Shown here: in pieces, positions 35,988-45,987 of the stretch
How positions within the stretch are numbered: the stretch's first letter is position 1
Layout of the letters: each line of letters opens with the position of its first letter
Source of the DNA: a virus
Lineage: Duplodnaviria > Caudoviricetes
Virus record (IMG/VR): IMGVR_UViG_3300030333_000934
Coordinates: 1 to 53,004 of that record
DNA: 53,004 bases
Reading direction: 5' to 3' (one strand)
Notes under the pieces: model-generated
Databases searched by the model: none
The model's input: the letters and a program-made list of their open reading frames with translations, nothing else
Told to the model about the DNA's origin: nothing
Program-made: the position numbers and the translations under genes

Positions 35988-36341
35988 ATGAGTGCAGGTT
36001 ACTATCATTTTATAATAGAGCAAGGGGCAACATTTAGGCATACCCTAACTCTCAAAGATTCAGCAGGAAGTCTTGTAAATCTAACTGGCTATACAGGTGC
36101 AGAAATGGATTTACGAAAAAACCAAGATGATAGTTCAGAAGTTTTAACACTCACAACAGGAAATTCACGCATAACACTCGGAGGATCTGCAGGTACAGTA
36201 ATCCTAGAGATCTCAGCTACAGATACAGCTAGTCTAACAGTCGGAGATGGAGTGTATGATTTAGAACTCACAGACGCAAATTCTAAGATCTATAGAATTA
36301 TGGAAGGCACATACTCAGTAAGAGGTAATACAAGTAGATGA
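35988..36341 (+). CDS. Beta-sandwich structural protein, possible fibre anchor
   Basis: IEQGATF, NLTGY, GT..L.ISA.DT, YDLEL; coupled to the collagen gene. Confidence 0.6.
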
Positions 36342-39300
36342 GTATTGTAAAGACTATAACAGTAACAGGTGCTACAACAATAGATGTTATTACAGTCGGC
36401 ACGCAGGGAGCAAGTGGTCCGAATACAATTCTTAACAAATCTGTTAATTCCATTACACTTGCTTCCGCCGACAATGGTGGTGCATTAGTTTATGATAGTG
36501 GAAATGGTTATTGGTCTGTTTCTACGCAAGATGCTAGTCCAGTAGTTAAGGTACGAGAACTAACCTTCAAAGCAGGGGGTGCTAGTGTTACACAGATCCT
36601 TGACGAAGATAATATGGCTAGTAATTCTAATGTTTCACTAGCTACACAACAATCTATTAAGGCATATGTAGATACAAGCCTTGCAGCACATGATCTAACA
36701 GTAAATAATGGATCATCAACTATATCTATAGATCACGCAACAGAAGAATTAGGGATCTTAGGTGGAACAGGTGTTACTTCCTCAGTAAGTGGAAATAATG
36801 TAACTCTAGCGATCGGACAAGCCGTAGCAACGACAAGTAATGTAACCTTTAATAATGTTGTCGTATCTGGAAATCTAACTGTATCAGGGACAACAACGAC
36901 TGTTAATACAGCGACTTTATCAGTAGCAGATAATGTAGTTGTTCTAAATTCCGACTATTCTGGATCTTCGCCATCTGAAAATGCAGGTTTGGAGATAGAA
37001 AGAGGAACACAGACTAATGTAACTTGGATCTGGAACGAAAGCACAGATAGATGGACTGCAGCTTATCCAGTTCAATCTGAAGGTTATTATGTAGGATCTA
37101 CAGAGATAGTTGATTCTTCTGGTAATTGGACAGGACCAAGCGCAGGATTAAAAGGCCAGAAAGGTCAAACTGGGGCAACAGGATCACAGGGAGATAAAGG
37201 CCAGAAAGGTCAAGCAGGAGAGAAAGGACAGAAAGGACAACAAGGTAATACTGGTAACACAGGTCCAACAGGACCAACTGGCCCTACAGGATCTACTGGC
37301 CAAAAAGGTCAAACTGGTAATACAGGATCTACAGGAGCAGAAGGACCAGATGGCCCAACAGGTCCAACAGGTAGTACAGGTCCGACTGGCCCTACTGGAC
37401 CGACAGGGGATAAGGGACAAAAGGGAGAAACAGGATCTACTGGTAATACAGGATCAACTGGTCCAACAGGATCTACTGGTCCAACAGGTGGTCAAGGAGA
37501 CAAAGGACAAAAGGGAACTACAGGAGATACAGGAGCAGAGGGAGATAAGGGGCAGAAAGGGCAGACTGGATCTACAGGACAAAAAGGACAAACAGGATCT
37601 ACAGGCTCACAAGGAATACAAGGTGATAAAGGTCAAAAGGGTCAGACAGGTGGCACAGGACCAAGTGGACCAACAGGACCACAAGGAAACGCAGGATCAG
37701 ATGGATCAGATGGTGCCGATGGATCTAAGGGGCAAAAGGGACAGACTGGTGGGACTGGACCTACAGGACCATCTGGCTCTACTGGGGATAAGGGACAAAA
37801 AGGACAGACAGGCTCAACAGGATCAGCAGGATCTGATGGGTCAGATGGGGACAAAGGACAGAAGGGACAAACTGGAGGAACAGGGCCAAGTGGTCCAAGT
37901 GGTCCAACTGGTAGTGCAGGACCAACAGGAAATACAGGCGACAAAGGTCAGAAAGGACAAACAGGAGCAGATGGTCCGACAGGATCTACAGGACCAACAG
38001 GAAGCACAGGACCAACAGGATCTACTGGTCCGACAGGAAGCACAGGCTCGGCAGGTGCTAAAGGACAGAAAGGAGAACAAGGGCAAAAAGGACAACAGGG
38101 GTCAGCAGGTACAGGAATAACTATGAAGGGATCTGTCTCTACTGTGCCAGATCTACCAAGTTCGCCAACCCCAAGTCAAGGAGATGCCTATATCGTTCAA
38201 GCTGACGATAGTTTACATATCTACGATGGCTCTGCTTTTGTAAGTGGAGGATCTATACAAGGTCCAACAGGAGATAAAGGTCAGAAAGGCGACACAGGAT
38301 CTACAGGATCGGCAGGATCCGATGGCTCTGATGGAGATAAAGGTCAAAAAGGTCAGACTGGATCTACTGGCCCTTCTGGATCTAATGGCTCTGATGGATC
38401 CGATGGCTCTAAAGGTCAAAAAGGTCAAACAGGAAATACAGGTAATACTGGCCCAACTGGTCCGACAGGCTCGGCAGGAAGTGATGGCTCAGATGGATCT
38501 AAGGGCCAGAAAGGTCAAGCAGGATCCGATGGCTCTGATGGATCAGATGGTAGTACAGGTCCAACAGGTCCGACAGGACCAACAGGACCGAGTGGATCTA
38601 ATGGTAGTGATGGGGATAAAGGCCAAAAAGGGCAAACAGGCTCTACTGGACCGACAGGCTCTACTGGTCCTGCAGGCTCAGATGGATCAGATGGATCTGA
38701 TGGTAGTAAAGGACAAAAAGGAGAAAAAGGCCAAAAAGGACAGACTGGAAATACTGGACCTAGTGGATCAGATGGTAGCGATGGATCAGATGGTCAAAAA
38801 GGATCTACTGGATCAGCAGGAGATAAGGGTCAAAAAGGTCAAACTGGAGGAACTGGCCCTACAGGTCCGAGTGGTAGTAATGGATCAGATGGCTCTAAAG
38901 GACAGAAAGGGCAGACAGGTAATACTGGATCAACAGGAAGTGCAGGTAGTGATGGATCCGATGGCGATAAAGGACAAAAAGGCCAGACTGGTGGAACAGG
39001 TCCGACTGGCCCTGCAGGAAGTACAGGACCATCTGGAAGTGATGGAAGCGATGGCGATAAAGGTCAGAAAGGAGATACTGGCTCACAAGGACCAAGTGGC
39101 TCAGATGGTAGTGATGGTAGTGATGGATCTAAAGGTCAGAAGGGGCAAACTGGTGGAGATGGTCCTACTGGTCCTACTGGCCCAACTGGTAGCACAGGAT
39201 CTACTGGCCCAACAGGTAACGCAGGAGATAAAGGTCAGAAGGGACAGACAGGTAATACAGGCTCTACTGGTCCTACTGGTCCTACTGGAAGCGCAGGAGA

Positions 39301-40534
39301 TAAAGGGCAGAAGGGGCAAACAGGGGGAACTGGTCCAACTGGAAATACTGGTCCTTCTGGTAGTGATGGCTCAGATGGTAGTAAAGGCCAAAAGGGACAA
39401 ACAGGTGGAACTGGTCCTACTGGTCCTAGTGGTCCGACTGGACCTTCTGGATCTAATGGGTCAGATGGTAGTGATGGAGATAAGGGACAGAAAGGACAAA
39501 CAGGTGGGACTGGGCCAACTGGTCCTTCTGGAAGCGATGGAAGTGATGGATCAAAAGGGCAAAAAGGTCAGACAGGTGGAACTGGTCCTACAGGAAGCAC
39601 AGGTCCGACAGGACCAACAGGAAGTAAGGGGCAGAAAGGTCAGACAGGTGGAGATGGACCTACAGGCTCTACTGGTCCTACTGGATCTACTGGACCTACA
39701 GGAAATGCAGGGGATAAAGGACAAAAAGGTGCTACAGGTAGCACAGGTGGAACTGGACCGACAGGTGGGACTGGACCTACTGGGTCAAAAGGTCAAAAAG
39801 GGCAAACTGGTGGGACTGGACCTACTGGACCTACTGGACCTACAGGGCCATCTGGAAGTAATGGTAGTGATGGAGATGATGGATCTACAGGACCAACTGG
39901 ACCTACTGGACCAACTGGACCTACTGGCTCAACAGGAAGTAAAGGTCAAAAAGGACAAACTGGTAGTGGTGGTAGTACAGGACCAACTGGGCCAACTGGT
40001 CCAACAGGTAGTACAGGACCAAGTGGTGGAACAGGGCCAACAGGTAGTAAAGGACAGAAGGGTGCTACAGGATCTAGTGGAGGTAGTGGACCTACAGGGC
40101 CAACAGGTCCGACAGGTCCGACAGGGCCAACTGGACCAGGAATATCTACAAGTTCAAACACACAGCTTAATAGCTTAGGTATAGGAACTGCTGCAAGTGG
40201 AACAGCAGGAGAAATTAGGGCAACTAATAATATAACCGCATATTACTCAGATCGCCGATTAAAGAATTTTGAGGGCAAGATCCCTGATGCTCTAAATAAA
40301 GTATTAGCATTAGGTGGATATTACTTTAGAGAGAACGAAGTTGCGAAAGATCTTGGATATACAAATGATGAAAGACAAGTAGGTGTATCAGCACAAGAAG
40401 TCCAGAATGTTATGCCAGAAGTAGTAGCACCTGCACCAATAGATGAAAAATATCTAACAGTAATGTATGATAAGTTAATCCCTCTATTGATAGAAGCGAT
40501 TAAGGATCTAGAGGAGAAAAAAGCAGACAAATAA
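36338..40534 (+). CDS. Collagen-like fibre protein with C-terminal peptidase S74 intramolecular chaperone
   Basis: ~270-aa fibre-type N-domain, two Gly-X-Y tracts separated by a ~50-aa globular knob, then YSDRRLK...[13 protein letters not shown]...[14 protein letters not shown]. Confidence 0.93.
37145..38107 (+). repeat. Gly-X-Y tract 1 (107 triplets)
   Basis: Counted from the translation; units [18 protein letters not shown]. Confidence 0.95.
38261..40132 (+). repeat. Gly-X-Y tract 2 (~208 triplets)
   Basis: 1872 nt in collagen register; same units as tract 1. Confidence 0.93.
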
Positions 40535-40549
40535 TTTCTAGGGAGAAAT

Positions 40550-45511: not shown

Positions 45512-45569
45512 ATCTTGTATTTGACTATAAGTACAAGAAAAGGGAAAATAAATCAATACAGGAGTAGAT

Positions 45570-45833
45570 ATGGTAGAAGAAACAAAGCCAGAAGGCCAAA
45601 AGAAATATAAATATCAGAGTAATGATGGAAAGGAAACTCTGTATGAATATAAAGATATGTCGCCTATTGGTCAAGAAGTCTTTAGAAGATTACAGAATTG
45701 CGAAATTAATAGAATAAGTATTAACGAAGCAGTTGATAATAACGAAATCCTACAAGCTCATTACCGAAATATTTTACATAAGGAACTTGGAATAGAAGAT
45801 GAGCAAAGCAAGCCAGAAGGAGATCCGAAGTAG
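45570..45833 (+). CDS. Hypothetical protein
   Basis: SD AGGAG; 87 aa. Confidence 0.6.
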   Translation: MVEETKPEGQKKYKYQSNDGKETLYEYKDMSPIGQEVFRRLQNCEINRISINEAVDNNEILQAHYRNILHKELGIEDEQSKPEGDPK

Positions 45834-45987
45834 CTTAGAACAGCACGAAGAAATATGTGCATTAAGATATAAGGCTATAGAAGATCGCTTAGAAGCAGGA
45901 TCTAAGAGATTTATAAGAATGGAAGGCATGATTATTGGCCTTTATGTTTTGATTATCGGCACCCAAATTCTTGGAGCAATATTATGA
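45799..45987 (+). CDS. Small coiled-coil protein with C-terminal TM (XhlA-like)
   Basis: HEEICALRY..I..RL..G.KRF then a hydrophobic helix. Confidence 0.6.
   Translation: MSKASQKEIRSSLEQHEEICALRYKAIEDRLEAGSKRFIRMEGMIIGLYVLIIGTQILGAIL

Follow-up and report, generated by a model that had tools for sequence, protein, structure and literature searches.

Hydroxylation and glycosylation of collagen lysines are known from animals and from mimivirus (PMC9546862, PMC12279948, PMC9614988), and collagen-like fibres are known from phages. The mimivirus of Acanthamoeba polyphaga is described as encoding collagens, with lysine often at position Y of the Gly-X-Y triplet, together with enzymes that hydroxylate and glycosylate them (PMC9614988, PMC9546862, PMC12279948); this set comprises L230 (a GT25-like glycosyltransferase (GT) domain joined to a lysyl hydroxylase (LH) domain), R699 (a galactosyl-hydroxylysine glucosyltransferase), R655 (GT25-like) and L593 (a prolyl hydroxylase). 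L230 has been called the first such enzyme outside animals (PMC9614988), and prokaryotic collagens are regarded as mostly unmodified (PMC8968730). Here, we analyze a marine tailed-phage genome of 53,004 bp, IMG/VR record IMGVR_UViG_3300030333_000934 (the window, i.e., the whole stretch of DNA at its full length), in which a block at 35988-45987 encodes a collagen-like fibre protein and, downstream of it, a predicted fusion enzyme of 621 amino acids (aa). Based on sequence comparisons, we consider it likely that this block is a phage cassette for a collagen fibre and the enzymes that modify it, in which lysines at position Y (Y-Lys) would be hydroxylated and then given two hexoses. This idea, of a phage collagen fibre encoded with animal-type hydroxylysine-glycosylation enzymes, was the core of a preliminary description of this DNA, and the in-silico linkage test that we report below supports it.

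Domains of the fusion enzyme and its linkage to Y-lysine collagens

Using a profile built from 18 family members, which are 54-66% identical to the window protein, we searched all solved structures and observed matches to human LH3 (1e-54, with the GT and LH stretches matching separately), R699 (1e-38), COLGALT1 (6e-26), L230 (1e-14) and R655 (8e-13). The N-terminal GT25 domain aligns with COLGALT1 chain positions 305-505, i.e., the catalytic second half, and places E-D-D on E-D-D, while the central GT domain aligns with LH3 chain positions 15-238, with T-D-A-Y-D on V-D-S-Y-D and H-G-N-G on H-G-N-G. The C-terminal 2-oxoglutarate (2OG)/Fe(II) domain aligns with LH3 chain positions 546-709, with H-H-D-A-S on the H-H-D-S-S of LH3 and T-H-G-H-E on its T-H-Y-H-E. 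The residues E89/D90/D91, D283/D286/H417 and H547/D549/H596/K606 do not vary among the 18 sequences. An AlphaFold model of the enzyme (predicted local distance difference test (pLDDT) 84.9, predicted template modelling score (pTM) 0.79) gave as its top Foldseek matches LH3 (1.8e-27), R699 and the human galactosylhydroxylysyl-glucosyltransferase (GGT) domain (template modelling (TM) score 0.82), the latter two at 2.5-2.6 Å root-mean-square deviation (rmsd), and further matches to COLGALT1 (rmsd 2.7-3.0 Å) and the L230 hydroxylase (TM 0.74, rmsd 2.4 Å). The preliminary description had read the gene as a GT25/PLOD-GT/LH fusion, with the LH part inferred, and this reading is borne out by the matches of that part to LH3 546-709 and to mimivirus L230. 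As predicted from sequence and model, the protein combines, in one chain, equivalents of the catalytic portions of human LH3 and COLGALT1; put otherwise, it is L230 with an inserted R699-type domain. In the published accounts of the mimivirus enzymes, the putative GT motif of L230 is also E-D-D and a tail-to-tail dimer is described as needed for LH activity (PMC9614988), and R699 is reported to bind Mn2+ through D83 and D86, with Y85 stacking on uridine (PMC12279948).

The collagen upstream of the enzyme has all of its tract lysines, 72 of 72, at Y and none at X. The preliminary description had placed every lysine that it read in X-Lys-Gly and had counted 27 in the first tract, both of which we confirm; its count of 107 triplets for that tract is corrected to 108. 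The triplet GQK occurs 38 times, most lysines lie within G-[DSE]-K-G-Q-K-G, and the commonest lysine contexts are GDK-GQK (18), GSK-GQK (12) and GQK-GQT (25). The tract prolines are all at X (82 of 82, with 0 at Y), and Y also holds 151 threonines.

A scan of IMG/VR with a single protein gave three loci, and an alignment-based scan gave 437 contigs with a relative of the enzyme, from which we examined the best 80 (at least 51% identity, near-duplicates included) together with two from the earlier scan. A collagen open reading frame (ORF) is present upstream and on the same strand in all 42 loci where 3,500 bp or more of sequence upstream of the enzyme is available, and each of the 26 loci where no upstream collagen was seen has 3,401 bp or less of upstream sequence. 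The gap between collagen and enzyme ranges from 11 to 3,279 bp (median 1,280 bp). This is the co-occurrence test across viromes that the preliminary description had proposed, with an enzyme common in phages that have no collagen as the outcome that would speak against its idea; among the 42 loci with enough flank, 0 are collagen-free. The 55 distinct linked collagen ORFs together hold 10,352 triplets, with 2,704 Y-Lys and 0 lysines at X, and therefore substrate is available to the enzyme, although such counts do not show turnover.

The same pairing is seen when loci are chosen by their collagen. Of 79 loci whose sole selection criterion was a DNA pattern encoding [10 protein letters not shown], 19 could be assessed, i.e., they contain a complete collagen ORF and at least 3.5 kb after it. 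The fusion enzyme is present in 12 of these 19 (7 of those 12 contigs were already in the enzyme-based set), and five (L086, L097, L115, L139 and L164) carry instead a GT4-GT25-2OG protein of about 750 aa, flanked by a DUF6445 gene and a small oxygenase. One locus (L160) has separate GT25 and 2OG genes, and one, a 5%-complete fragment, has a small oxygenase only. GT25 and 2OG domains accompany 18 of the 19 motif-chosen collagens, in three architectures. As a control, we took 80 loci chosen by three repeats of G-P-T, 67 of which contain a collagen ORF. Here, the enzyme is present in three loci, each with at least nine K-G-Q-K-G and 17-23% Y-Lys, and in 0 of the 61 loci whose collagen has fewer than two K-G-Q-K-G, most of those collagens being lysine-free. 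For three further motif-bearing control loci, a search of the whole record located the enzyme in two, and the third record is 11% complete.

Cultured phages contain the pairing as well. The enzyme is found in 11 of 50,697 phage isolate records (the cyanomyoviruses S-PRM1, S-CAM9 and S-8S53/55/56, one single-cell viral contig and the roseophage CRP-6), and in the records of cultured phages it is annotated “hypothetical protein”. In S-PRM1, the enzyme is 45% identical to that of the window and is located 1.5 kb downstream of a fibre protein of 1,824 aa with 59 triplets and 23 Y-Lys; in CRP-6, it is 39% identical and is located 0.4 kb downstream of a collagen of 488 aa with 99 triplets and 26 Y-Lys. 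Both collagens contain the K-G-Q-K-G motif, and S-CAM9 has the same order of collagen and enzyme genes. The pairing is present in at least four backbones: the gene transfer agent (GTA)-like type of the window, a second lineage of about 53 kb, the T4-like cyanophages and CRP-6. In a scan of cellular genomes, one for each of 185,579 species, we obtained 107 stretches with a relative of the enzyme and read the best 80. The full-length fusion is present in four of these, all contigs of metagenome-assembled genomes, and the two that have enough flank contain a Y-Lys collagen upstream. Since just four full fusions occur among the 80 cellular stretches, the fusion enzyme is, as far as sequence can tell, essentially viral.

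Proposed maturation of the fibre and alternative explanations

In the mechanism that we propose, the fusion enzyme would act on Y-Lys, mainly in G-x-K-G-Q-K-G, before the chains assemble into the helix. Hydroxylation by its C-terminal 2OG/Fe(II) domain would yield 5-hydroxylysine, its N-terminal GT25 domain would add a first hexose to the hydroxyl group, and its central LH3-type GT domain would add a second, giving a Hex-Hex-hydroxylysine (Hyl) product that resembles the Glc-Gal-Hyl of animals. The small oxygenase encoded directly after the collagen would hydroxylate proline at position X (X-Pro) of the same fibre. The S74 chaperone (PF13884 score 37.8-42.9 bits, against a Pfam cut-off of 22) would nucleate trimerization from the C-terminus and then cleave itself at Ser1304, where an S-D-R-R-L-K Ser/Lys motif is located that we take to be the S74 autocleavage site. 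A collagen helix rises 0.286 nm per residue, and the approximately 950 Gly-X-Y residues of the fibre would extend to about 270 nm if fully helical. Longer fibres are encoded by four related loci (L026, L042, L045 and L053), which reach 458-511 triplets compared with 317 in the window. Between the end of the helix and Ser1304, 35 residues would be left; the mature fibre would have no evident globular tip, and so the modified helix, or the products of orf233 or orf245, may be its working surface. Helix stability without 4-hydroxyproline, a hydrophilic shield and adhesion are all candidate purposes of such a fibre.

Our analysis of the small oxygenase demonstrated that it contains H-x-D at 105-107 and His168, and that its best solved relatives are a prolyl 4-hydroxylase (P4H; 6iuq, with just 1e-5) and PKHD-type hydroxylases. 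Its most likely target, as predicted from sequence, is proline at X (in G-P-T and G-P-S); the window collagen is without proline at Y, the site of the animal P4H. A small oxygenase is present in the locus of 36 collagens with at least four X-Pro, and the four complete genomes with a collagen of 0-1 X-Pro all lack a small PF13640 gene. The genome of locus L025, whose collagen has 0 X-Pro, encodes as its sole small oxygenase a paralogue that groups with a second, different copy in the window (support 99/92). That the small oxygenase always adjoins X-Pro collagens is ruled out by seven loci whose collagen has at least four X-Pro and where no oxygenase is present in the locus; a copy resembling the collagen-adjacent type (type 1) is encoded elsewhere in four of the five of these records searched first, and the fifth record is 48% complete. 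Three points weigh against a link between oxygenase and X-Pro: the complete genome of CRP-6 lacks a small oxygenase, its collagen having six X-Pro in 99 triplets, none was found in two records that are 48% and 57% complete, and proline-free collagens are confined to few lineages, so that few independent events underlie the comparison. Because the proline-free collagens belong to few lineages, the co-occurrence is a lead and not proof. We also observed that two enzyme-linked collagens (L040 and L062) have no X-Pro and eight prolines at Y each, the reverse of the usual pattern.

With regard to how the fibre is attached, we lean toward a side fibre of the tail or neck; a head fibre is less likely. 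The position of the gene points to the head region (the capsid/adaptor interval here, the portal/capsid interval in CRP-6), whereas the family labels are those of tail fibres. The N-terminal domain of the collagen, which presumably forms the end attached to the virion, has no more than weak matches in PHROGs, to tail-fibre and structural proteins, and its similarity to Mtd_N-type atlas clusters (0.88-0.90) is a lead only. When we compared gene content across 84 related loci, N-termini homologous to that of the window collagen were present in 23. The gene directly before the collagen, orf117, matches phrog_1084 (9e-24) and phrog_3304, “L-shaped tail fiber protein assembly” (4e-12), with a Pfam LtfC match (0.12) below the cut-off, and its atlas neighbours include LtfC and BppU_N clusters. 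Homologues of orf117 are present in nine related loci, with capsid-proximal genes and always directly before the collagen; a fold model from the alignment of these nine sequences was unusable (pLDDT 38.5). The preliminary description had called this protein anchor-like; its position just before the collagen is kept in the nine loci, the matches that bear on the anchor reading itself are weak, and on sequence grounds we class orf117 as a candidate fibre adaptor or assembly protein.

Several observations weigh against the lysine modification that we propose. Each of its chemical steps rests on homology and linkage, and our linkage sample is the best 80 of 437 contigs, with near-duplicates among them. 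The 2OG-binding Arg of LH3 is replaced in the fusion enzyme by the invariant Lys606, which is basic, and so a conservative but real departure, and the accessory domain of LH3 is missing. Among viral analogues, the one closest to the GT25 domain, L230, is reported to transfer Glc rather than Gal (PMC9614988), and because L230 adds Glc where animals add Gal, the sugars of the phage cannot be named. Two near-complete records, L245 (97% complete) and L219 (90%), lack the enzyme; their collagens have 17-19% Y-Lys and are without K-G-Q-K-G, so that Y-Lys alone is not diagnostic and the doubled motif is. Finally, 76 of the 80 bacterial stretches are stand-alone LH-domain homologues of about 200 aa, with about 40% identity and no collagen within 8 kb; an LH fold alone is therefore no proof of a collagen substrate, and the LH-type domain appears to have other uses too. 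Most of these stand-alone homologues (L335-L410) come from Actinomycetota of fresh water (Ilumatobacteraceae and relatives), and some are located on contigs of 240-410 kb.

The alternative that survives best is that the enzyme modifies the fibre in a way unlike the animal pathway, i.e., by hydroxylation and addition of a single glucose, by glycosylation of threonine at Y, or with other sugars that are methylated by the FkbM-family protein of the block. The glucose added by the GT25-like domain of L230 would fit the first of these, and the 151 threonines at Y, on which a GT could act, fit the second and weigh against our proposal; the FkbM and cupin genes hint at extra sugar chemistry in this genome, and the replacement of the LH3-type GT by a GT4-type domain in the variant of about 750 aa shows that the second sugar step is exchangeable. 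We nevertheless judge this alternative to be improbable, as the metal- and nucleotide-binding motifs known from the two collagen enzymes are retained in both GT domains, the central domain can be superposed at 2.5-2.6 Å on glucosyltransferases that act on galactosyl-hydroxylysine, and Thr-rich collagens without Lys motifs are not accompanied by the enzyme in any of the 61 control loci.

It is far less probable that the gene of the enzyme serves an auxiliary or host-takeover function directed at lipopolysaccharide (LPS), host proteins or 2OG balance, with the collagen as an incidental neighbour. PHROGs places the family in the category “moron, auxiliary metabolic gene and host takeover”, which also weighs against modification of the fibre, the Joint Genome Institute (JGI) name is [quoted passage not shown], GT25 is an LPS family, and cyanophages are described as rich in 2OG oxygenases of unknown role (PMC2938197). 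An incidental neighbour would not be expected upstream in every assessable locus (42 of 42), nor in unrelated backbones and three domain architectures, and the enzyme is missing from every one of the 61 collagen loci that have no Lys motif. A scaffolding or fibre-assembly role for domains that are catalytically dead relics has even less in its favour, and we give it very little credence: the replaced 2OG-binding Arg fits this idea, but all metal-binding and DxD-type residues are invariant in the 18 sequences, which are only 54-66% identical to the window enzyme, the model is confident, and Lys at the 2OG-binding position is the solution used by P4H-type enzymes. The least probable explanation, that oxygenase and GT domains modify phage DNA by base hydroxylation and glycosylation in the style of TET/JBP, can draw on a TET-associated glycosyltransferase in this genome (22440-23309, beside ParB_N, cytidylyltransferase and epimerase genes), but we consider it very nearly excluded by the location of that module 19 kb away among replication genes, by the matches of the oxygenase domain to LH3 and L230 rather than TET/JBP and of the GT domains to the two collagen GTs, and by the position of the fusion enzyme among structural genes beside its predicted protein substrate.

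Organization of the block and of the rest of the genome

The window is a complete siphovirus genome (CheckV completeness 100%) with a GTA-like layout, as determined using Pfam and PHROGs, and its G+C content is about 35% throughout, except in the collagen gene (44-51%). The features that we identified are listed in Table 1. The closest capsid protein is that of Rhizobium phage RHph_X2_25 (51% identity), where the interval from capsid to adaptor is about 2.5 kb and contains homing endonucleases; since this interval is 10.9 kb in the window, “inserted block” is a fair description. All ORFs listed in the preliminary description for a co-oriented block between the capsid and head-tail genes are present on the + strand, most of them abutting or overlapping by a few bases, and Pfam agrees with the families that it assigned to the collagen, S74, 2OG oxygenase, FkbM, cupin and GT25/GT_PLOD parts. 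A scan for promoters and terminators was indecisive, with 33 promoter-like sites compared with 46 expected and a single terminator-like hairpin, 3′ of orf140, and we found no tRNA genes in the window genome.

Table 1. Features of the window, in order of position
Feature	Coordinates	Strand	Evidence and remarks
Continuation of tail genes past the record ends	8-3947		Hint domain, DUF6950, Phage-tail_3 + fn3
Second small PF13640 oxygenase	14610-15167	-	Different paralogue type; groups with the L025 copy
Large terminase	at 28581		Pfam/PHROGs
Portal	at 29897		Pfam/PHROGs; followed by a MuF-like protein
Prohead protease	32836-33816		Peptidase_S78; N-terminal DUF3721 match 3e-10
Major capsid protein	33813-35033		Pfam
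orf140	35048-35470		Small ORF between capsid gene and block
Small ORF	35525-35884		Between capsid gene and block
orf117	35988-36341	+	Small, all-beta, 117 aa; stop overlaps collagen start
Collagen-like fibre protein	36338-40534	+	1,398 aa; Pfam Collagen (PF01391) 5e-126, Peptidase_S74 2e-9; 317 Gly-X-Y triplets in two tracts
N-terminal non-collagen domain	36338-37144	+	aa 1-269; presumed virion-attachment end
Collagen tract 1	37145-38116	+	Residues 270-593; 108 consecutive triplets, 27 Y-Lys
Triple-helix interruption	38117-38260	+	48 aa; phrog_3904 tail fibre 6e-5
Collagen tract 2	38261-40141	+	Residues 642-1268; 209 consecutive triplets, 45 Y-Lys
S74 intramolecular chaperone	40247-40534	+	PF13884 6e-11 on C-terminal piece; motif S-D-R-R-L-K starts at Ser1304
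Small P4H-like 2OG-Fe(II) oxygenase (type 1)	40550-41125	+	191 aa; 2OG-FeII_Oxy_3 (PF13640) 2e-15, 58 bits vs cut-off 27
73-aa ORF	41098-41319	+	Doubtful gene; no family match; counterpart in 0 of 84 related loci
FkbM-family methyltransferase	41316-41903	+	195 aa; PF05050 8e-19; 28 of 84 loci, all with window-like backbone
Cupin_2 protein	41900-42214	+	104 aa; PF07883 5e-13; 0 of 84 loci; solved relatives are generic small cupins
Predicted trifunctional fusion enzyme	42211-44076	+	621 aa; GT_PLOD (PF25342) 8e-49, Glyco_transf_25 (PF01755) 2e-14; phrog_61 full length 4e-90
GT25 domain	42211-42741	+	aa 1-177; COLGALT1-like catalytic domain; invariant E89-D90-D91
LH3-type (PLOD) GT domain	42832-43485	+	aa 208-425; invariant D283/D286 (T-D-A-Y-D), H417 (Y-H-G-N-G)
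LH-type 2OG domain	43555-44076	+	aa 449-621; invariant H547, D549, H596, K606
orf245	44080-44817	+	245 aa; no family match; homologues in 17 of 84 loci, some between collagen and enzyme; accompanies the module in some lineages
orf233	44810-45511	+	Gly-rich, 233 aa; no family match; homologues in 31 of 84 loci; travels with the module
Small ORF	45570-45833	+	After orf233
orf62	45799-45987	+	Homologue in 42 of 84 loci; immediately precedes the adaptor gene in every locus that has one
gp6-like head-tail adaptor	45984-46646		Pfam; followed by head closure, neck and tail terminator
Tail tube	47875-48288		
GTA-gp10-like chaperone and tape measure	49079-51598		

Our comparison of the related loci demonstrated that the conserved core of the module is the collagen and the lysine-modifying enzyme, usually with a small oxygenase (present in 48 of the 84 loci). 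The preliminary description had presented the block as an operon of nine genes, which overstates the system, because conservation extends to the collagen, the fusion enzyme and, mostly, the small oxygenase; the FkbM gene is restricted to a minority of loci, and among the 84 loci the cupin gene and the 73-aa ORF are specific to the window genome. FkbM and cupin are lineage-specific extras. A sequence search identified no solved relative of the FkbM-family protein, and a sugar or hydroxylysine as its target is a guess. At the end of the block, orf62 is probably one of the head-tail genes and not part of the fibre module. Directly after the capsid gene, orf140 has a match to phrog_5707 (2e-20) and a weak match to Bbp16 of BPP-1 (0.025), and is possibly a head decoration gene; the terminator-like hairpin behind it is located at 35486-35503.

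Further features were noted elsewhere in the genome. A cytidylyltransferase-like gene, ParB_N, the TET-associated glycosyltransferase (5e-39) and an NAD-dependent sugar epimerase are located at 21435-24157, with a UDP-glucose/GDP-mannose dehydrogenase-like gene nearby at 26800-27684, and these genes are probably a DNA hypermodification module. We left the epimerase and the UDP-glucose dehydrogenase-like protein, which are encoded beside this DNA-glycosylation gene, out of the collagen pathway. CRP-6 carries a cytidylyltransferase too (PMC6918029). Homologues of curli secretion proteins are encoded at 7451-8750 (CsgF 3e-15, CsgG 2e-45); the genes that follow them code for a FecR-domain protein (9368-10483) and, after it, a CHASE2-adenylate/guanylate cyclase (10637-12472), and such cargo is unusual in a siphovirus. 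A Hint/intein-like protein at 8-727 (AXH 2e-15, PT-HINT 4e-10) is located at the start of the distal tail genes.

Significance and relation to described systems

Glycosylated hydroxylysine in collagen has been seen as belonging to animals, mimivirus being the sole curiosity, and a widespread, compact phage version would, if true, bring the pathway into the cytoplasm of bacteria. It would explain what some of the puzzling 2OG oxygenases of cyanophages do, and would raise the question of where the animal enzymes originated. It would also provide an enzyme of 621 aa, compatible with bacteria, for glycosylated recombinant collagen, the production of which is described as not yet possible in bacteria (PMC9546862). 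These predictions are directly testable, as S-PRM1, S-CAM9 and CRP-6 are all in culture with their hosts. We put forward only tentatively, as a rather doubtful extension, that marine tailed phages possess a self-contained collagen pathway, made up of an S74 module, a one-chain LH/Gal-/Glc-transferase, a prolyl hydroxylase of new, X-Pro (Gly-Pro-Thr) specificity and virion fibres of hundreds of nm that consist of glycosylated hydroxylysine collagen, that these fibres would be the earliest known case of a prokaryotic-world collagen matured after translation, and that this is a possible source of the LH3/COLGALT genes of giant viruses and perhaps of animals.

The fibre of the window resembles the collagen tail fibres of phages and prophages that end in S74, in having Gly-X-Y repeats with X-Pro and threonine at Y and a trimeric logic, and many PHROG “tail fiber” families match it. 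In contrast, the ordinary phage collagens that we chose by G-P-T are mostly Lys-free (181 Y-Lys in 4,261 triplets), and their 61 loci are those in which the enzyme was not found. Phage-encoded GTs that decorate the phage's own structural proteins reportedly have a parallel in mycobacteriophages: in the virion glycosylation attributed to Freeman et al. in 2023, phage GTs are said to O-glycosylate Ser/Thr-rich termini of capsid and tail-tube proteins, with neither a hydroxylase nor a collagen involved.

The bacterial operons described by Iyer et al. in 2010, in which 2OG dioxygenases are predicted to modify adjacent Gly-rich collagen-like or tail-collar proteins (PMC2938197), are similar in concept, but those operons contain beta-hydroxylase or PhyH-family enzymes and sulfotransferases. 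Cyanophage oxygenase arrays are ascribed there to secondary metabolites (PMC2938197), and the main-text passages of that work make no mention of an LH or a GT25 fusion, although its supplementary tables may hold such annotations. In the CRP-6 paper (PMC6918029), the words collagen, oxygenase and glycosyltransferase are absent, and here too the supplementary tables may hold annotations. Our literature search, with subscription journals and supplements largely outside it, found nothing that links phage collagen-like fibres to an LH or to a GT25/PLOD enzyme.

The human counterparts, LH3 (PLOD3) and COLGALT1 of the lysine O-glycosylation complex (PDB 8zgc), share with the phage enzyme the three catalytic modules, the metal-binding motifs and the X-Lys-Gly context, at 16-28% sequence identity in the Foldseek alignments. 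The phage differs in fusing the COLGALT1-type domain to the LH3-type GT and LH domains and in being without the non-catalytic first half of COLGALT1; it also has no LH3 accessory domain, signal peptide or endoplasmic reticulum context, and contains Lys606 in place of Arg. Mimivirus is similar in that the GT25 domain is N-terminal and the LH domain C-terminal in L230 as in the phage enzyme, the central domain of which matches R699. The two differ in host (bacterial compared with amoebal), in the use of one chain of 621 aa rather than two or three proteins of 458-895 aa, in the strict adjacency of the phage enzyme to a collagen, in the S74 end of that collagen and its restriction of proline to X, and in how very widespread the set is in marine phages. 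The predicted chemistry is the same as in the known systems; what is new, judged from the sequences, is the host domain, the fusion architecture and the accessory set, together with the lead that the small oxygenase tracks proline at position X of the collagen. The recurrence of this gene pairing in many marine phages suggests that phages, too, may decorate collagen in the manner of animals.

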